Source of the DNA: an uncultured Candidatus Saccharimonadales bacterium
GTDB lineage: Bacteria; Patescibacteriota; Saccharimonadia; UBA4664
NCBI GenBank assembly: GCA_964505035.1
Contig: CAZDGK010000005.1
Coordinates: forward strand, 1 to 34,623
DNA length: 34,623 bases
Reading direction: 5' to 3'
Under the pieces are notes generated by a model. That model ran no database searches and was not told the origin of the DNA. It was given only the letters and a program-made list of their open reading frames with translations. Position 1 is the stretch's first letter. Each line of letters begins with the position of its first letter. The translations under genes were made by a program, and so were the position numbers. Shown piece by piece: positions 1 through 7,380 of this stretch.

Positions 1-3000
1 AGGATCTCGATGAGGGCCAGGTTGAACTGATCGGCGGTTGGGGCGGTGTCGTTGATGGTGACGACGGTGCCGGAGGCCGGGGTGGGCGCGGTCTGGCGCT
101 GCACCCAGTAGGTGTCGCCGGCGGGGGCCAGGTATTGGTCGACTAGGGTTTGGTTGGGACCGACGGTGCGAGCGGTGGCGGTGGACCAGTCGGTGCCGGC
201 GGCCCAAATCCAGGAACCGGCCCGGGTGGTAGTGATGGTGGCCGTGGGGGCGCCGGTGGCGGCACTGGCGCCGGCGGTGGCGCCCAGGGCAGTGTCGGCA
301 TTCTTGAAGCCGGCCACGGTGATGGTGCCTTGCCACGAGCCACTGGCCCGGGTGGCGGTAACGGCGGTGGCGGTGAGGGGTCCGGGCGCCACGGCCTGCC
401 AGATCTCGGCGGTGCCGGACTGGGTGTTTTGACGCTTTCGCAAGGTCCAGGTGAGACCGCCCCCAGACACTGAGCTAAACGAGGTGGCACCGGAGCCGCT
501 GGGCCCATCGGAGCTGAGGAAGGCTAGCAGCAGCTCGTTTGACTGAGTGGTGGTGATGGCCGGCGACGTAATGGTGGTACCGGCGACCGATTGGTGGGTG
601 GTCACCTGCGCGTCCAGGCTGATGACTGATGGGCCGGTGGGGACGGTGGCGGAGGCCGCATTGGAGGCCGGGCCGACATTGCCGGCGGCGTCCTGGGCTG
701 TCACGGTGTAGCTATAGGCGGTGCCGGCTATGACCGAGCCGTCGGTGAAGCTGGTGCCGGTGGCGGTGCCGATGGGACTGCCGTCCCGGCTGATGTTGTA
801 GCGCGACACGCCCACGTCATCGGTGGCGGCGGTCCAGGCCAGCGCCACCTGACCCGGCGCCGGCGTGGCGGTGAGGCTGGTGGGAGCGGTGGGCGGCGTA
901 GTGTCGGCGGTGGTGGTAGCCACAGTCTCATTGGACGACGGGCTGACGTTGGCGGCGGCATCTTCGGCCCGCACCTGGTAGTAGTAGGTGCCGGGAGCCA
1001 GCCCAGAGTCGGTGTAATTGAGGGCCGATCCGCTGACCTGAGCCACCTGGTTGGCTGGGCTGGGTGTGAAGCCCGCCGCCGTGGAGCGGAAAACGTCATA
1101 GTGAGCCACGCCAACGTTATCGGTGGCCGCCGCCCAGCTCAGGTCGACCTTGCCGACACCGCCGGCAGCTGCGAGGTTGGTGGGGGCGGTGGGGGCTACA
1201 TTGTCTTCGAACGGCGCCGGGAAGCGGACGAAGCTCGAGACCGACGGCACGCCGTTGCCGTTCACAATTGACAGCAGGTAGTAGCCGGGAGGGGCGTAAT
1301 TGCCGTTTTGGGGCATCTGGACGTTGAGACCGCCGGCAGTTTGGGTGAAGCTCAGCGACAGCGCCCGGGCGTTTTGGTCAAAAGCGTGGGTGCCGGAACC
1401 GGTGCGGATGAGCGAAACCCGCGTGATATTGGCAGCGTCCGGGGTTTGCACGAAGGTACTGGTGTTGTACTGGACCGTGCCGGGAACGGAGGTAATGGTG
1501 GGGCGGGCGCCTTTGAACAGGTAGGACGGTGAGTAGATTTGGTAGTTCTGCTCGTCGGGTACGCCCGGGTCACCGCCGGAGCCGCTGACGAACACCCGGC
1601 CGTCGGGCAGCAGCTGGGCCGTGGAGTGGTAGAGACGAGGGGCGGTGAGCGCAGCCACCGTGTGCCAGGTGCCGGTGGCCGGGTCCCAAATTTCGGCCGG
1701 CAAGACGGCGTGAGCTTCGTTGAAGCCGGTACGCTCAGTGCCTCCGCCGGTGGCCAGGACTGTGCCGTCGGGCAGGTTGGTGAGGTTGGTGAAGCTGCGC
1801 GGGAAGGCCATGGAGCCGGTGGGCTGCCAAGTGGGGTTGGGTTGGTTCATATCGAGGGTGTAGGCAGTGTTGGCTGCGTTGCCGGTGTTGCCGTCATCGG
1901 CCGCCGTGCCGGCCTTCATGAATTTGCCAGGAGCGTAGTTGGCAATGCTGGAGCCGTCGATGATGCGCGCGTCAACCGTGGACCAGGTTTGCAGGTTGGA
2001 GCTGAGGACTTCGGTTTGGGTGGCGATTTCGCTGGCGCCGGCCCAGAGCACGCGGCCGTCGGGGAGCTGATACATGAACGGGTAAATGGGAATGTTGTGG
2101 GTGGCCGAGGTGAGGTCACTCCACGTGTTGTGCTGGGTGTCGTAGATCTCGGGGACTTGGATGAGATCGCTGGCAGAGCTGCCGTAGCCGGCCGTGACCA
2201 GGACGCGGCCATCGCCCAGGGTGGTGCCGGTGGCATACCAGCGCGCGTAGTGCATGTCGGCTAGCGTCTGCCAACTTTCGGTGGCGGGGTTGAAGGCGGT
2301 AATGGTTTTGGTGCCGAGCCCGCCGGAGGTGGAGGTGCCGCCGATGACCATGATTTTGCCGTCGGGCAGGACCGCTTGGCCGGCGCAGAACAGGTCGGCC
2401 AGGGCGTTGGGGACTTGGGTTTGGGCGCCGTTTGACGGGTTGAGCAGATACTGGGCGCCGCCCTGACTGAAGTCGCCCTGGAAGGTGAGGATTTTGCCGG
2501 TGTAGGTGAGCGCGGCATGGATGGAAACCTCGGGCCAGGCTACAACCGGACCCCAAGCGCCAACGACTGACGGATCGCTGGAGCCGTTGCTAACGGTGAC
2601 GGTTACGGTGGCCGAGGTGGCGGTGTTGCCGGAGGTGTCGGTAGCTACGGCTGCCAACGTGTGGCTACCGGCCACCGCCGTGGTGGTGTCCCAGTTGACT
2701 GAGTATGGGCTGGCGGTGTCGGCAGCGCCGAGGTTGGCGCCGTCGAGGGTGAACTGAACCGCGGCTAGGCCGACGTTGTCGCTGGCGTTGGCAGCCACCG
2801 AGATGGTGCCGGAAACGGTGGTGCCGTCGGGCGGGGTGGTCAGGGCGACGGTGGGCGGCGTCAGGTCGTTATTGACGCTAACCGTGATGGTGGCGGCCGT
2901 GGCGGTGTTGCCGGCGGCGTCGCGGGCGATAGCCGACAGCGTGTGGCTGCCGTTACCGACGGTCTTGGTGTCCCAACTGGCGGCGTACGGTGCGGTGGTG

Positions 3001-4460
3001 TCTTCGGCTCCCAGGTTGGCACCGTCGAGCACGAATTGGACGCCGGCCACCCCGGTGTTGTCGGCGGCATTGGCGGTTACATTTACGGTGCCGAGGACGG
3101 TGGCGTTGTTGGCCGGCGCGGTCAGGCTGACGGTGGGTGGCGTGGTGTCGGCGACCGGGTCGGCAGTGGTAAAGGTAGCGTCGGCCGAAACGGCGGCGTT
3201 ACCGGCGGCGTCGGCGGATTTAACACGGTAGTGGTAGAGGGTGCTGGCGGTCAGGCCGGCCAGCGTTTGGCTGTGGTTGGTAACGAGCGCCGGTGCGAGC
3301 GTAGTTGAACTGCCGTAGCTCGTGTCCAGGCCATACTCAACCTGGGTGGTGGCGGGCTCGTCGGTGGTCCAGCTGATAGTCGCCCCGGTCTGGGTGGGGG
3401 TCCCGCTCGAGACAGCGCCAATCACCGGTGGCGTGGTGTCGGGCGCCGGCGTGGTGACGGTGGCCGGAGCCGAGTCCGCCGAGGTGTTGCCGGCGGCGTC
3501 AAATGCCCGCACGGTGTAGCTGTAGGCGGTGCTGGCCGCGGCGGTGGTGTCGGAATAGCTGGTAGCGGTGGCCGTCCCAATCTGGGTGCCGCCGCGCAAG
3601 ATCCGGTAGCCGGTGACGGCAGTGTCGTCGCTGCTGGCGCTCCAGCTAAGGTCGACCCGGGTAGAGCTGACGGCCGTGGCGGTCAGGCCCCCGGGCACCG
3701 AGGGGGCGGTGGTGTCGGTGGCCGCGGCCGGGATTTCGATCAGGGCCAGGTTCCAGCGGTCGGTGGTGGGCGCGGTGTCGTTAATGGTCACCGGCGCGGG
3801 TGCCGGAGTGGCCGCGTTCTGCCGCTGCGTCCAAAATGTATCGCCGGAAGCGGCCAGATATTCGTCCACCTTGGTTTGAGTCGGGCCAACTGTCCGCGCT
3901 ATGGCCTGGTCATAATCATTACCCACGCCCCAGACCCACGACCCGGCCCGGGTGGTCGAGAGGGTGGCACTGGGCGCTCCGGTGGCGGCATTGGCCCCGA
4001 TGGTGGCTCCATCGGCCGTAATATCGGCGCCGATAAAGGTGGCGACGGTAATGGAAGCATTATATGAACCGGAATGGGTCCCCTTGACGGTGGCGTTGGT
4101 GACCACGCTCGGAGCCACGGCCTGCCAAATCTCGGCGGTGCCGCGCTGGGCGTTGGTGCGCTGGCGCAACCGCCAGGTGAGTCCCCCACCCGTCACTGAG
4201 CTGAAGGTCTGCGCCGTACCCGGCCCGTCGGTGGCCAGGAAAGCCACCAGCAGCTCGCCGCCCTGCGAGGTGGTAAAGGCCGGCGAGGTGACCGAGGTAG
4301 CCTTGGTGGTAGCATGAGCACTGACGAGCTTGTCGATCACCAGCCCGCCGGCCGCCTGCGCCCCGCTCTTGGCAAACTGCAAGCTGCTCGACAGCCCGCC
4401 AATGGTTAGAATTGCGATAAGAGCAACCGAGAATCTGCGTAACCCCGACACACGACGCAT
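1..4460 (-). CDS. Large secreted multidomain copper radical oxidase (AA5, galactose oxidase/GlxA-like) with Fn3 and Ig-like domains; 3' end truncated by the window edge
   Basis: Manual minus-strand translation from ATG 4460 (MRRVSGLRRFSVALIAILTIGG..., signal-peptide-like) stays open to base 1. Motifs in frame: DLFCAG (Cys 2385-2387), RWYAT (Tyr 2235-2237), RLYHST (1626-1631), GTHAFDQN (His 1386-1388), PPGYYLL. Kelch-like LPDG.V...GG repeats; DTTPP/DAAGN-bounded Fn3 and Ig modules. Absent from the ORF track because there is no stop in the window. Confidence 0.93.
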   Translation of the reverse strand, partial: MRRVSGLRRFSVALIAILTIGGLSSSLQFAKSGAQAAGGLVIDKLVSAHATTKATSVTSPAFTTSQGGELLVAFLATDGPGTAQTFSSVTGGGLTWRLRQRTNAQRGTAEIWQAVAPSVVTNATVKGTHSGSYNASITVATFIGADITADGATIGANAATGAPSATLSTTRAGSWVWGVGNDYDQAIARTVGPTQTKVDEYLAASGDTFWTQRQNAATPAPAPVTINDTAPTTDRWNLALIEIPAAATDTTAPSVPGGLTATAVSSTRVDLSWSASSDDTAVTGYRILRGGTQIGTATATSYSDTTAAASTAYSYTVRAFDAAGNTSADSAPATVTTPAPDTTPPVIGAVSSGTPTQTGATISWTTDEPATTQVEYGLDTSYGSSTTLAPALVTNHSQTLAGLTASTLYHYRVKSADAAGNAAVSADATFTTADPVADTTPPTVSLTAPANNATVLGTVNVTANAADNTGVAGVQFVLDGANLGAEDTTAPYAASWDTKTVGNGSHTLSAIARDAAGNTATAATITVSVNNDLTPPTVALTTPPDGTTVSGTISVAANASDNVGLAAVQFTLDGANLGAADTASPYSVNWDTTTAVAGSHTLAAVATDTSGNTATSATVTVTVSNGSSDPSVVGAWGPVVAWPEVSIHAALTYTGKILTFQGDFSQGGAQYLLNPSNGAQTQVPNALADLFCAGQAVLPDGKIMVIGGTSTSGGLGTKTITAFNPATESWQTLADMHYARWYATGTTLGDGRVLVTAGYGSSASDLIQVPEIYDTQHNTWSDLTSATHNIPIYPFMYQLPDGRVLWAGASEIATQTEVLSSNLQTWSTVDARIIDGSSIANYAPGKFMKAGTAADDGNTGNAANTAYTLDMNQPNPTWQPTGSMAFPRSFTNLTNLPDGTVLATGGGTERTGFNEAHAVLPAEIWDPATGTWHTVAALTAPRLYHSTAQLLPDGRVFVSGSGGDPGVPDEQNYQIYSPSYLFKGARPTITSVPGTVQYNTSTFVQTPDAANITRVSLIRTGSGTHAFDQNARALSLSFTQTAGGLNVQMPQNGNYAPPGYYLLSIVNGNGVPSVSSFVRFPAPFEDNVAPTAPTNLAAAGGVGKVDLSWAAATDNVGVAHYDVFRSTAAGFTPSPANQVAQVSGSALNYTDSGLAPGTYYYQVRAEDAAANVSPSSNETVATTTADTTPPTAPTSLTATPAPGQVALAWTAATDDVGVSRYNISRDGSPIGTATGTSFTDGSVIAGTAYSYTVTAQDAAGNVGPASNAASATVPTGPSVISLDAQVTTHQSVAGTTITSPAITTTQSNELLLAFLSSDGPSGSGATSFSSVSGGGLTWTLRKRQNTQSGTAEIWQAVAPGPLTATAVTATRASGSWQGTITVAGFKNADTALGATAGASAATGAPTATITTTRAGSWIWAAGTDWSTATARTVGPNQTLVDQYLAPAGDTYWVQRQTAPTPASGTVVTINDTAPTADQFNLALIEI
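3731..4343 (-). repeat. Intragenic duplication: ~200-aa beta-rich domain, first copy (second copy at ~1..629)
   Basis: Both copies contain ELL.AFL..DGP, GGGLTW.LR.R.N.Q.GTAEIWQAVAP, TTRAGSW.W..G.D, GDT.W.QRQ and INDTAPT.D..NLALIEI. The DNA stretch gccacggcctgcca(g/a)atctcggcggtgccg occurs near 388 and near 4114. Confidence 0.9.
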
Positions 4461-4614
4461 ATAAGCCCCCAAGTTAGATACGCTATTAAATGTGCTCCGC
4501 AAAAGCAAAAAAGTAAAGGTCAGGGCTGGTGAAGTTCTAGCGTAACCCACGACCCGGAGCCAGAAATTATTGTTGCAAAACAGTCGATCAAGCCTTGACT
4601 ACTGCCTTGAGTTG

Positions 4615-4635
4615 ATATACCCTAGGGGGGTATAT
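4615..4635. promoter_or_regulatory. CsoR operator overlapping the promoter of the DUF4396-csoR operon
   Basis: Perfect inverted repeat ATATACCC-TAGGG-GGGTATAT, the C-tract/G-tract type-1 CsoR/RcnR site. It lies between TTGAGT (4607-4612) and TATATT (4631-4636), 10 nt before ATG 4646. Confidence 0.88.
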
Positions 4636-4645
4636 TGGAGACCGC

Positions 4646-5128
4646 ATGAACGACCACGAGATGAATGGCCATGACCACAGCGCCATGCAGAAAAATATGG
4701 CTGCCAGTGCTACCCTACATTGCCTGGCGGGCTGTGCGATCGGCGAGATGATTGGTGTGACAGTCGGCACGCATGCTGGCTTTGCGCCTCACCAAACGGT
4801 TATTTTGGCGGCTATACTATCGTTCATATCGGGATATAGTGTGTCGACCTGGCCCCTGGTAAAGGCAGGGGCTTCGTTTCTTAAAGCCGTGCGCCTGGTG
4901 TTTGCCGCTGACACTGTCTCAATCCTGACCATGACGCTGGCGGATAATCTGATAATGCTCCTGATTCCCGGGGCCATGGATAAAAACTTGGCCCATTCGG
5001 TTTATTGGTATAGCAGGATTCTGTCCTTATCGGCTGCATTTATCACGGCCTACCCAGTGAATGTCTATCTGCTCAGACACGGCAAAGGACATGCACTTAC
5101 CCATAGCTACCACGAGCGTAATCACTAG
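4646..5128 (+). CDS. DUF4396-family membrane protein with His/Met-rich termini
   Basis: TLHCLAGCAIGE motif, about 4 TM segments, AYPVN..L...GKGHA C-terminus; N-terminus MNDHEMNGHDHSAM. Confidence 0.85.
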   Translation: MNDHEMNGHDHSAMQKNMAASATLHCLAGCAIGEMIGVTVGTHAGFAPHQTVILAAILSFISGYSVSTWPLVKAGASFLKAVRLVFAADTVSILTMTLADNLIMLLIPGAMDKNLAHSVYWYSRILSLSAAFITAYPVNVYLLRHGKGHALTHSYHERNH

Positions 5129-5136
5129 GAGCTTAT

Positions 5137-5415
5137 ATGAAGTATGGATACGCCGAAAACAAAGAAGCCATCCTCAAGCGCCTGAAGCGGGCCGAGGGGC
5201 AGGTTCGCGGAGTAGCGCACATGGTCGAAAAGGACGAATATTGCATCGATATTCTGACGCAAATAAAAGCGCTACAGGCGGCGGTTGATAAGGTTGCGAT
5301 CGAGCTGGTACGTGACCATGCCAGGCACTGCATGGTGCAGGCTAAGGATGTAGCCGAGCAACGACAAAAAGCCGATGAGCTGGTTGGCGCCATCGGTAGG
5401 ATGCTTTCTCGCTAG
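5137..5415 (+). CDS. csoR: CsoR-family copper-sensing repressor
   Basis: RLKRAEGQVRG...YCIDILTQ...DHARHC gives the Cys-His-Cys Cu(I) ligand set; SD AGGAG overlaps the upstream stop. Confidence 0.92.
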   Translation: MKYGYAENKEAILKRLKRAEGQVRGVAHMVEKDEYCIDILTQIKALQAAVDKVAIELVRDHARHCMVQAKDVAEQRQKADELVGAIGRMLSR

Positions 5416-5483
5416 GGTCCCACGACTATTGTGCGCACGACCTGGAGCCTGGGCCTCGTTCCGGGTATTGTATGATGCTCTTG

Positions 5484-5789
5484 ATGGACCTAAGCGACTA
5501 CCTGACAACCGAGCGCATCAGAGAGCTGGCTCTGCCGTCGAACTTTGACTACGGAGAGGCTATTTATCGGCGCGGGGCCGTGGAGATGATCGAGGAGGCT
5601 GGCACGAAGGTAGAGGCCTGGGTCGGCGGGCTTGATGGGACGGTGCGCGAAGGCGGCGGATCGCGCCGGCGGACGACACTGGCCATGGCTGACGGCCAGC
5701 TTCAATGGCACTGCACGGGTAATCCGAAGACTCACCAGATCTTTTGCAAGCACTGTGTGGCACTAGCACTTCGCGTTGGCAAACATTAA
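5484..5789 (+). CDS. SWIM zinc-finger-like small protein
   Basis: RG..Y-like start (YGEAIY) and HCTG...FCKHCVALAL. Start chosen at ATG 5484, 7 nt after TATGAT. Confidence 0.7.
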   Translation: MDLSDYLTTERIRELALPSNFDYGEAIYRRGAVEMIEEAGTKVEAWVGGLDGTVREGGGSRRRTTLAMADGQLQWHCTGNPKTHQIFCKHCVALALRVGKH

Positions 5790-5998
5790 GGGCTGATTTT
5801 CACCGACTGAACGACGAGTGCGACAGCGCTGAGTATGTGAGATTTGCCAATGGCCTTTTTCGTATGGCAAGTGATCAAGAGGTAGCCAGCCCCGCGCCAG
5901 CTATAGTGCTGCGGTTATATTTGCGAGGATGTATGTAGGCTTGGCCGAGCCTGGGCGGTAGGATACGGAGGCCACAAAACGTAAGGGAGGGATGTTGT

Positions 5999-6229
5999 AT
6001 GGCAAGTAATAACGGCGAAAACGAGAAGATGACTGTCCAGGAAGCTGGGCGGAAGGGCGGCGAGGCTACGGCCCGGACCCACGACCGCGGGTTTTACGAG
6101 GAGATTGGCCGGGAGGGTGGCCAGAAGAGCCCGGGCAATTTCAGGAACGACCCGGAGCGGGCCAGCGCGGCCGGACGCAAGGGTGGCCAGGCGCGGAGCA
6201 GCGACAACAACCAAAACGACCAACAGTGA
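5999..6229 (+). CDS. KGG-repeat general stress protein (GsiB/YciG-like hydrophilin)
   Basis: MTVQEAGRKGG, FYEEIGREGG and NFRNDPERASAAGRKGG repeats; SD GGGAGG. Confidence 0.9.
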   Translation: MASNNGENEKMTVQEAGRKGGEATARTHDRGFYEEIGREGGQKSPGNFRNDPERASAAGRKGGQARSSDNNQNDQQ

Positions 6230-6231
6230 TA

Positions 6232-6252
6232 GAGGGGGCTACAGGCCCCCTC
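6232..6252 (+). terminator. Hairpin after the KGG gene
   Basis: GAGGGGGCT-ACA-GGCCCCCTC directly after the stop; no clear U-tract. Confidence 0.5.
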
Positions 6253-6354
6253 AAATGGAATTATTGGCATAAACATTTTTGGAAAAATGATCAATTCCTG
6301 TCCCTGCCTAGCCATTTATAGTGGCTTACGGATATTAGACACAAGGAGGGACCT

Positions 6355-7380
6355 ATGAGTGTTGCAAAGGTTTGGGTAAGTGGATTGATGACGGTGGTGC
6401 TGGGGATGGGCCTGGCGCCGGCGGCGGTGCTGGCGGCCCCGGGGCCAACCTGCCGGGCTCTGAGCATGCCGGTGGCGCTGGGGCCGGGCTTGCCAGCGAC
6501 TGAGACGGTGGCGGGGACGCTGTGCGTGCCGGCTCAGTTTACAGGGCCGAAGCAGGTGGACGTGCTGGTACATGGCGCATCGTATAACCGGACCTATTGG
6601 GACTTTCCGGTACAGGAGCCGATGTATTCGTATGTGAGCCGGACGCTGGCGCAGGGCCGGGCGACGTTTGCCTACGACCGGCTGGGAGCTGGGCAGAGCA
6701 GCCGGCCGCTGAGCACGGCGGTGACGATTGAGAGCGACGCATACGTCCTGCACCAGGTGATCCAGGCGGCGCGCGGGGTAGCACCGGTGCAGAAAGTGAA
6801 TGTGGTAGGACACTCGTTTGGCTCGGTCGTGGCGATAGACGAGGCCGCGACCTTCCACGACGAGGACCGGCTGGTGTTGACGGGTCTGCTCCACGCCACG
6901 GGGCCAGGGCAGACGAACCCCGCAGCCTTCCAGCCGGCGTTCCTGGACCCGCAGTTTGCCGGCCAGGGTTACGACCCGGGGTACCTGACGAGCACGCCGG
7001 GCTTCCGCGGCCAGCTCTTCTACTACGCGCCGACGGCTGATCCGGCGGTCATCGCCTATGACGAGGCGCACAAAGATGTGGCATCGGCGACGCAGTTTGG
7101 CGAAGGCTTGGCCCAGATCAACACGCCGGCTGGGGCCAATCTGTCTAACCAGGTCACGGTGCCGGTACTGGTGATTGACGGCCAGTTTGACCAACTATTC
7201 TGCGGCCTGACGCTCGACTGCAACAATCCGGCAACAGTGGCAGCCAATGAGGCGCCGTTCTACACGGGCTCGCCGAGCTTCACGTCGGCCATCGTGGCCA
7301 ACACGGCTCACGACCTGGCGCTGCACACCACAGCCGGCACGTCGTTTGCCACCATCAACCAATGGATCGAAACGCACTAG
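6355..7380 (+). CDS. Secreted alpha/beta hydrolase
   Basis: Signal peptide, LVHG oxyanion motif, YDRLGAG, GHSFG nucleophile elbow, G.FD acid, AHD His; SD AAGGAGG. Confidence 0.88.
   Translation: MSVAKVWVSGLMTVVLGMGLAPAAVLAAPGPTCRALSMPVALGPGLPATETVAGTLCVPAQFTGPKQVDVLVHGASYNRTYWDFPVQEPMYSYVSRTLAQGRATFAYDRLGAGQSSRPLSTAVTIESDAYVLHQVIQAARGVAPVQKVNVVGHSFGSVVAIDEAATFHDEDRLVLTGLLHATGPGQTNPAAFQPAFLDPQFAGQGYDPGYLTSTPGFRGQLFYYAPTADPAVIAYDEAHKDVASATQFGEGLAQINTPAGANLSNQVTVPVLVIDGQFDQLFCGLTLDCNNPATVAANEAPFYTGSPSFTSAIVANTAHDLALHTTAGTSFATINQWIETH

Follow-up and report, generated by a model that had tools for sequence, protein, structure and literature searches.

A window of 34,623 nucleotides, the first 34.6 kb of contig C5 from an uncultured Candidatus Saccharimonadales bacterium (genome of 1,236,018 bases in 71 contigs, 99.26% complete), carries a two-gene operon for a small membrane protein of the DUF4396 family and a CsoR-family repressor. 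On balance we favor, by a modest degree of belief, the reading that this DUF4396 protein exports or relays Cu(I) and is derepressed by copper, acting as the effector of a self-contained copper-stress operon; the assignment draws on sequence, gene context and a predicted structure. The operon lies on the forward strand and diverges from the reverse-strand gene of a GlxA-like copper radical oxidase. The features of the locus are:

4615 to 4635, no strand: putative CsoR operator, a perfect 8 + 8 inverted repeat with a 5-nt spacer and TAC-N9-GTA around a G/C tract.
4595 to 4636, forward strand: likely promoter, overlapped by the operator, from boxes placed by eye and by scan.
4646 to 5128, forward strand: DUF4396 membrane protein of 160 residues with four predicted transmembrane (TM) helices (PF14342, E = 1.8e-34).
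5137 to 5415, forward strand: csoR, 92 residues, C-H-C type, translationally coupled to DUF4396 (PF02583, E = 1.8e-27).
3 to 4460, reverse strand: very large multidomain protein, secreted or anchored, whose core is a GlxA-like copper radical oxidase, running off the contig start (Pfam domains).

Pfam matches and the open reading frames (ORFs) bear out the two-gene unit that a preliminary description, made from the letters of the window, had proposed. The genes lie 8 bp apart, with an AGGAG sequence overlapping the stop codon of DUF4396. The 185-bp intergenic region to the oxidase gene also stands, with the ATG at 4460 as the oxidase start; the ORF list offers an alternative GTG start at 4550.

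The same description had placed a perfect operator over the promoter of the unit, and this box is present: 21 nt reading ATATACCC-TAGGG-GGGTATAT end 10 bp ahead of the DUF4396 ATG at 4646. The box fits the CsoR operators given in the accessible parts of two papers, namely the 21-nt streptomycete consensus ATATACCCCTNAGGGGTATAT with its TAC-X9-GTA motif (PMC3902906) and the boxes TATACCCnnnnnGGGTATA and ATACCCCnnnGGGGTAT (PMC5057107), and it has their G-tract pseudopalindromic form. The window has one mismatch-free copy of the core ATACCC-N5-GGGTAT. Allowing up to two mismatches, one site was found against 0.84 expected; as this count is no better than chance, we place weight on the exactness, position and conservation of the box. 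A scan of the rest of the genome for the operator, which had also been proposed, leaves 4615 to 4635 as the sole G-tract box: the 1,236,018 bases hold one perfect core site and three one-mismatch sites, all three lacking the G-tract, and a looser scan over the 71 contigs added no further box with a G-tract. By eye, the promoter reads TTGACT (4595 to 4600), 17 nt and TATACC (4618 to 4623), while a scan returned a sigma-70-like TTGAGT-18-TATATT (4607 to 4636) that overlaps the box; a Shine-Dalgarno GGAG stands at 4639 to 4642, ahead of DUF4396. Because the scan gave one promoter-like site against 1.2 expected (the terminator scan was likewise at chance level), we only infer a promoter here.

The regulator matches PF02583 with 96 bits against a cutoff of 22.8 and has the x-C-H-C ligand fingerprint in Cys36, His61 and Cys65 (a helix-2 Cys followed by His-x3-Cys). 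Its residue numbering presumably equals that of Mycobacterium tuberculosis CsoR, and we take Tyr35 and Glu81 to form the second shell. Among the curated NCBIfam models the best is RicR, a copper sensor (87.8 bits, against 35.2 for FrmR and 29.5 for RcnR). The C-H-C triad constitutes the Cu(I) ligands of CsoR in the accessible part of PMC5057107. The genome has no other CsoR-family gene, and the closest C-H-C relatives of this one (50.6% identity, in genomes G108 and G042) lie directly beside copA. A second CsoR-family gene, in another Saccharimonadia genome (G080:C1:36500-39500, at ∼970 to 1224), encodes a protein 57.6% identical to the window CsoR in which Tyr replaces the ligand His and a C-x-C is present as in persulfide sensors; a CsoR-type box, ATATACCCCTAGGGGGTATGA, stands upstream of it.

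The regulators of related loci bear on the identity of the metal. Among the 31 regulators adjoining a DUF4396 gene, 29 are of C-H-H type, and C-H-C occurs only in the window and in one other locus (L009). A His at the third ligand position, the several metals bound by the H-C-H-H CsoR of Thermus thermophilus (as described in the accessible part of PMC5057107) and the affinity of His-rich tails for many metals would suit a DUF4396 substrate that is not copper, or not copper alone (Ag, Zn, Cd, Ni or Co). We judge this quite improbable, since the window regulator itself is C-H-C, the C-H-H lineage and the same box also stand before ATPases that exceed the curated copper-ATPase cutoff, and the metal-related fusion partners described below are all copper proteins.

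The DUF4396 protein scores 119.6 bits against PF14342 (cutoff, 27), with residues 18 through 147 covering profile positions 4 through 140 of 141; NCBIfam has no model for it. The family comprises 1483 clusters at 50% identity in public data and spans several phyla. We aligned the window protein with those 54 of 150 listed representatives that had near-full coverage (55 rows in all). The protein consists of a His-rich N-terminal tail, a ladder H25-C26-x3-C30-x3-E34 in TM1, S92, M96 and N101 in TM3, a GKGH motif and a His-rich C-terminal tail. Residues conserved in at least 90% of the rows are A19, A22, T23, H25, C26, L27, G29, C30, G33, E34 and G37 in the first part of the protein, L58, F60, G63, G75, S92, I93, M96, N101, P108 and G109 in the middle, and W121, P137, N139 and G146 toward the C terminus. 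The intramembrane HCxxGC motif noticed in the preliminary description is thus a property of the family: each of H25, C26, G29, C30, G33 and E34 is found in 52 or more of the 55 rows, the fuller form HCxxGC(xx[GA][DE]) lies in the first TM helix, and the HCxxGC core is retained even in a clade of 23 to 29% identity. In one subclade, associated with genes for multicopper oxidase and ATPase, the motif reads HCxAGD and so has a single Cys. The Met-rich helix of the same description fared less well; the motif is there, but M96 alone is near-invariant (54 of 55), M111 is found in 40 of 55 and M104 is not conserved. His-rich termini are common but variable, 21 of the 55 rows having no His in the last 40 residues of the N-terminal tail, although some rows may be truncated predictions.

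An AlphaFold model built with the 55-row alignment is a four-helix membrane bundle (pLDDT 87.8, pTM 0.77) with helices at residues 9 through 44, 48 through 73, 78 through 106 and 118 through 144. From their i, i+4, i+8 spacing, C26, C30 and E34 should lie on one face of helix 1. A Foldseek search with the model gave no match to a solved fold at E ≤ 0.001, and the best VIA-align hit (Z of 8.4) is a dynamin-like helical domain, in a range described as common for helical bundles. A homodimer prediction, made without controls, scored 0.00 and speaks neither for nor against a dimer.

The preliminary description had noted the unit to be without copA and copZ, and this holds for the whole assembly: across the 71 contigs there is no match to PF00122 (P-type ATPase core), PF00403 (HMA) or TIGR01511 (copper ATPase), models that each found targets in 13 to 14 of 14 control genomes. 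Searches of the genome by tblastn with CopA (a P1B ATPase query taken from locus L051), YHS, multicopper-oxidase, cupredoxin, DUF305, ICMT and YtkA-like queries found none of these, and PF07732 found no multicopper oxidase. The locus therefore differs from a csoR-copZA operon in that the genome has neither a P1B ATPase effector nor a CopZ/HMA chaperone. The genome nonetheless uses copper, as it encodes heme-copper oxidase subunit I as well as the GlxA-like oxidase. The subunit I gene (G000:C3:43919-45286; PF00115, E = 3.5e-140) implies a membrane copper demand besides copper stress.

To place DUF4396 relative to CopA we used a class sample of 151 Saccharimonadia genomes, at least 80% complete and evenly drawn. 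A TACCCC...GGGGTA box is present in 19 of the 20 csoR loci fetched from this sample, and in 23 of the 32 CsoR-positive genomes an ATPase that exceeds the TIGR01511 cutoff is encoded ∼4 kb or less from csoR (coordinates compared by eye). Since the C-H-C and C-H-H lineages are shared and the box is of one type, the target of either repressor lineage would be copA in some Saccharibacteria genomes but DUF4396 in other ones. CopA exceeds the cutoff in 49 of the 151 genomes, comprising 3 of the 20 that carry DUF4396 and 46 of the 131 that do not. Within the window's family (22 genomes and the window's own) the two are almost mutually exclusive: nine genomes have DUF4396 only, ten CopA only, three neither and one both, and in that last genome DUF4396 is a 77-codon fragment. 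One of the nine DUF4396-only genomes (G133) has a P1B-like ATPase just below the cutoff. Both the DUF4396-only and the CopA-only state occur inside a single genus (g2). Outside the sample, three of four further genomes with a csoR-DUF4396 pair have no P1B ATPase (L030 and L131, titled complete, and L024, a chromosome); the fourth (L018, titled complete) has only a 613-residue ATPase of a type that falls under the cutoff, and a fifth genome, in which DUF4396 has no csoR link, has CopA. A second P1B-like type, of ∼612 to 660 residues, is widespread in Saccharimonadia (for example, G074:C2:46008-47597) and scores 343 to 381 bits against the TIGR01511 cutoff of 397.

Linkage of CsoR to DUF4396 was assessed in 78 loci retrieved with the window protein as query and 46 retrieved with a homolog (P0097); the counts exclude eight loci on contigs already represented, as well as loci matched only in part. 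Among Saccharibacteria, the box lies within 450 bp upstream of DUF4396 in 35 of 64 loci (two of these being loose matches without the G-tract), and 34 of the 64 have csoR no more than 2.5 kb away; many of these loci come from closely related Nanosynbacter genomes and are not independent. Loci from actinomycetes and other taxa (35 to 47% identity; Streptomyces, Nonomuraea, Blastococcus and Solirubrobacterales among them) have the box upstream in 21 of 30 cases, with csoR nearby in only 2 of 30, and 22 of the 26 pattern matches in their 239.7 kb fall upstream of DUF4396. At six actinobacterial loci, four of them from Streptomyces, the box ends 17 to 52 bp before the likely ATG. The claim that CsoR controls DUF4396 is thus supported, at the level of sequence, by the fit to published boxes together with the recurrence of the box and gene pair in Saccharibacteria and of the box in actinomycetes. 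The predicted link is real and wider than the window, and it is limited to certain clades. The accessible text of PMC3902906 lists only csoR, copZA1 and copZA2 as CsoR sites in Streptomyces lividans; with DUF4396 missing from that list, it is apparently an unreported member of the regulon in those actinomycetes that carry it.

Two arrangements extend the pair. In the Nanosynbacter operon the third gene encodes an alpha-amylase, so it was rejected as a copper gene. In one class-sample locus (L089; G115:C22:10600-17000) the order is box, csoR, an FNR-like NAD-binding oxidoreductase of 351 residues, DUF4396 and DUF305, a larger CsoR operon built around DUF4396; the genome belongs to the window's family and has no match to the P-type ATPase models.

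Fusions provide a second view of the function of DUF4396. Among 94 longer homologs, cupredoxin domains are fused to DUF4396 in 34, an ICMT/PEMT-type methyltransferase in 42 (among P0044 through P0088), DUF305 in 2, and a multicopper oxidase (a Saccharibacteria protein, 72% identical), HMA plus a P-type ATPase, a YtkA-like domain, DedA and a DNA glycosylase in 1 each; the other 11 have no second Pfam domain. Cupredoxins, multicopper oxidases and DUF305 proteins normally function outside the cytoplasm. In the fused proteins inspected, a His-rich tail is followed by DUF4396, an R-G-K-G-H-A motif, one further hydrophobic segment (placed by eye) and then the outside domain; P0093, the ATPase fusion, likewise has its C-terminal domain after an extra hydrophobic segment. 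Because the outside domains come after one extra hydrophobic segment, both termini of DUF4396 itself should be cytoplasmic. The genes near DUF4396 at its loci agree with the fusions; among them are those for multicopper oxidase, DUF305 and P1B ATPases that carry YHS domains. A tie between the DUF4396 family and copper proteins that normally lie outside the cytoplasm is supported by these domain combinations, and such a link may be a general one. Single-frame DUF4396-multicopper oxidase proteins are found in a Saccharibacteria locus (L013, P0001; 698 residues), behind csoR and the box, and in a Steroidobacterales locus (L052; 632 residues), where a second multicopper-oxidase ORF of 605 residues lies just downstream and aligns without the DUF4396 core.

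Among the copper proteins fused to DUF4396, electron-transfer folds are the most frequent (34 cupredoxins and 1 multicopper oxidase in the 94 homologs), TM1 has a conserved CxxxC, and an FNR-like NAD-binding oxidoreductase gene stands between csoR and DUF4396 in L089. Such features would be expected of a membrane thiol/redox protein that, in the manner of CcdA or DsbD, carries electrons or reduces Cu(II) or disulfides on behalf of copper proteins outside and moves no metal. We consider this role improbable, mainly because the HCxAGD subclade has one Cys, which a dithiol conduit could not tolerate; in addition, the Cys pair is surrounded by His, Glu and Met, which, like the His-rich tails, resemble metal ligands, and the Foldseek search, with no match at E ≤ 0.001, gave no likeness to solved folds.

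In the mechanism we propose for Cu(I) export or relay, apo-CsoR (C-H-C) would occupy the 4615 to 4635 box at low copper, occluding the promoter and blocking both genes. Rising cytosolic Cu(I) would bind Cys36, His61 and Cys65, CsoR would leave the DNA and DUF4396 would be made. DUF4396 may then act as a small ATP-independent Cu(I) exporter or relay whose cytoplasmic His-rich tails collect Cu(I) and whose TM1 His-Cys-x3-Cys-x3-Glu ladder, facing Ser92, Met96 and Asn101 of TM3 together with Asp89 and Asp100, would carry the ion to the far side of the membrane, perhaps coupled to a counterflow of protons. In relatives, a fused or co-regulated cupredoxin, multicopper oxidase or DUF305 protein outside would receive it, and in the window genome DUF4396 would occupy the slot that CopA holds in other Saccharibacteria. 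We infer CsoR binding, the copper response, the direction and substrate of transport and the energy coupling from sequence.

Several observations weigh against this mechanism. A protein of four TM helices has no evident energy source, and at position 97, which is Glu in 52 of the 55 aligned rows, members of the window's clade have Thr. No box lies within 450 bp upstream at any of the 26 loci of the distant clade (23 to 29% identity), and of the 19 other DUF4396 loci in the class sample only L089 combines csoR with the box, so that CsoR control of DUF4396 is confined to some clades; the remaining class-sample loci (35 to 67% identity to the window protein) sit among housekeeping genes. Where DUF4396 genes of the window's family have no csoR link, their neighbors (PP-loop ATPase, MgsA, Band 7 and PIN) gave no regulator or copper lead. 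The absence of copA is that of a 71-contig assembly. Across the class the negative association of DUF4396 with CopA is weak (Fisher p = 0.12), with three of the 20 DUF4396-positive genomes carrying CopA and four more a P1B-like ATPase just under the cutoff; the corresponding p value of 0.003 within the family is nominal and overstated, as related genomes are not independent. The export model leaves the 42 methyltransferase fusions unexplained, and the homolog fused to CopA fits an accessory or relay role better than that of a substitute pump.

This last protein, an HMA-CopA fusion of 1227 residues, argues for DUF4396 as a membrane Cu(I) relay, chaperone or buffer that would take up Cu(I) through its Cys ladder and His tails and either pass it to partners (a pump, DUF305, oxidases or outside cupredoxins) or sequester it. 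The outside copper-binding domains in 38 of the 94 long homologs, the very His-rich N-terminal tails of the Streptomyces homologs and the lack of an evident energy-coupling module in 160 residues point the same way. Set against this are the window genome and three further csoR-DUF4396 genomes (two titled complete, one a chromosome), in which there is no P1B pump to hand the ion to; the window genome also lacks matches to the multicopper oxidase, cupredoxin, DUF305 and YtkA queries, and the conserved polar and acidic residues along two TM helices are those expected of a transmembrane path. We regard a role confined to relay or buffering as unlikely, though deserving of serious attention. More far-reaching is the proposal that DUF4396 represents a novel class of small Cu(I) exporters, independent of ATP and with a fold that differs from those of solved transporters, which can replace CopA completely as the sole CsoR-regulon effector in minimal genomes, including human oral Nanosynbacter, and which in larger genomes connects, through fusions or a shared regulon, to copper acceptors on the outside (for example, cupredoxins, multicopper oxidases and DUF305). 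We put it forward tentatively, as something short of an even prospect.

Accounts of bacterial copper efflux generally rely on P1B ATPases, RND systems and a small number of accessory proteins. As a kind of system, the CsoR-repressed copper operon is known; the DUF4396 effector is new. The csoR-copZ-copA operons of Bacillus subtilis, S. lividans and Corynebacterium glutamicum and the csoR-cueA divergon of Bacillus liaoningense share with the window a C-H-C CsoR-family repressor, and in the accessible parts of the sources such operons also have a G-tract box (ATATACCCCTNAGGGGTATAT or TATACCCnnnnnGGGTATA) over the promoter and a repressor autoregulated within the operon. Other Saccharimonadia have exactly this csoR-box arrangement, with copA. 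What differs is the effector, a P1B ATPase of ∼700 residues in those operons but a 160-residue four-helix protein, with no solved match to its fold, in the window, as well as CopZ, for which no CopZ/HMA counterpart was found in the window genome. The cso operon of M. tuberculosis (csoR-Rv0968-ctpV-Rv0970) and the RicR regulon are alike in that their repressors also control small membrane proteins of unknown function besides the pump, and the window CsoR scores best against the RicR model; the cso operon includes the ATPase CtpV, whereas the window operon has no ATPase. MerT, MerF and MerC of mer operons are likewise short membrane proteins with intramembrane Cys pairs that transport a thiophilic metal ion under a metal-sensing repressor or activator, but they belong to other families, are importers that feed a cytoplasmic reductase and have no sequence or fold likeness to DUF4396 that we could see. 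We favor export over Mer-like import because excess Cu(I) would be the inducer.

The identifiers PF14342 and IPR025509 are not mentioned in the open-access papers and preprints searched (supplements lay outside the search), nor do these contain a description of the family, although supplementary regulon tables could hold an earlier listing. The accessible text of PMC7760498 mentions DUF4396 in passing, beside a metal-resistance island. For CsoR in Saccharibacteria, the open-access literature gave nothing relevant among the matches listed, as judged on titles and the beginnings of abstracts. In the window genome and three other Saccharibacteria genomes, the only visible target of a copper-sensing repressor is a membrane protein of 160 residues. 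Should DUF4396 move Cu(I), it would constitute a new transporter family, would explain how ultra-small bacteria without a pump, some of them human oral episymbionts, survive copper, and would be an unreported CsoR-regulon member in some Streptomyces and other actinomycetes.

The DUF4396-csoR pair sits in a region of low G+C (GC) content. The GC content falls to 51 to 60% over 4400 to 6400 of the window, a stretch that includes DUF4396, csoR, a 105-residue ORF that has no match in Pfam, and a KGG stress-repeat protein; the DUF4396-csoR cassette itself is at 51 to 54%, against 65 to 72% for the oxidase gene and a genome mean of 60.7%. This is compatible with a horizontally acquired cassette. The contexts of the two closest cassettes (L008 and L009) are unrelated to one another (SDR, APH, HD and HisRS), and no mobile-element genes were identified near them; the idea of a mobile cassette thus stems only from the GC dip and the varied contexts.

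The oxidase ORF comprises at least 1486 codons with fn3, Big_7, Ig-like, Kelch, glyoxal-oxidase and GO-like E-set domains. The best solved relative of its core is S. lividans GlxA (Protein Data Bank chain 4unm_A, E = 8.2e-47), with which it shares the Kelch-propeller copper radical oxidase core; the window protein differs in its length and in its additional fn3, Big_7 and Ig-like domains and duplicated end domain. The DLFC, RWY, YHS and TH motifs align with 4unm_A, so that the AA5 copper site is conserved; in GlxA and galactose oxidase these residues supply the Cys-Tyr cross-link and the Tyr, His and His copper ligands. The NCBIfam GlxA model (NF052501) gives 232.3 bits, and as this is below the equivalog cutoff of 800 the protein is a relative of GlxA rather than an ortholog.

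The preliminary description had combined operon and oxidase into a module that senses, exports and uses copper. Of the neighborhood survey it proposed, the CsoR-DUF4396 link recurs, but in tblastn searches the oxidase catalytic domain lies beside DUF4396 at none of the related loci (0 of 78 and 0 of 19, together 0 of 97), and we rejected the coupling as a conserved feature. A GlxA-like oxidase occurs in 4 of the 151 Saccharimonadia genomes; three have DUF4396, on a separate contig from the oxidase in G005 and G106, and the fourth has CopA. That co-occurrence, the divergent genes only 185 bp apart, the copper-site motifs kept in the oxidase and the fusion of relatives to other outside cuproproteins are what would speak for a DUF4396 dedicated to metallating the adjacent oxidase, with the shared intergenic region co-regulating both. 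The lack of adjacency at the 78 and 19 loci and the separate contigs in G005 and G106 argue otherwise, as do the position of the box (directly at the promoter of DUF4396 but ∼155 bp away from the start of the oxidase), the contrast in GC content between cassette and oxidase gene and the 17 of 20 DUF4396-positive genomes that have no such oxidase, and we find a dedicated role the hardest of these explanations to credit. Given the 0 of 97 adjacency, the GC contrast and the unrelated cassette contexts, the back-to-back layout of oxidase and DUF4396 looks like an accident of insertion. The oxidase also carries two copies of a ∼200-residue domain, at residues ∼40 through 250 and ∼1280 through 1486, which flank the fn3 domain, the Ig-like domain and the GlxA-like core and have no Pfam match over them; the copies begin LLVAFLATDGPG... 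and LLLAFLSSDGPSG... and both end ...INDTAPT..NLALIEI.

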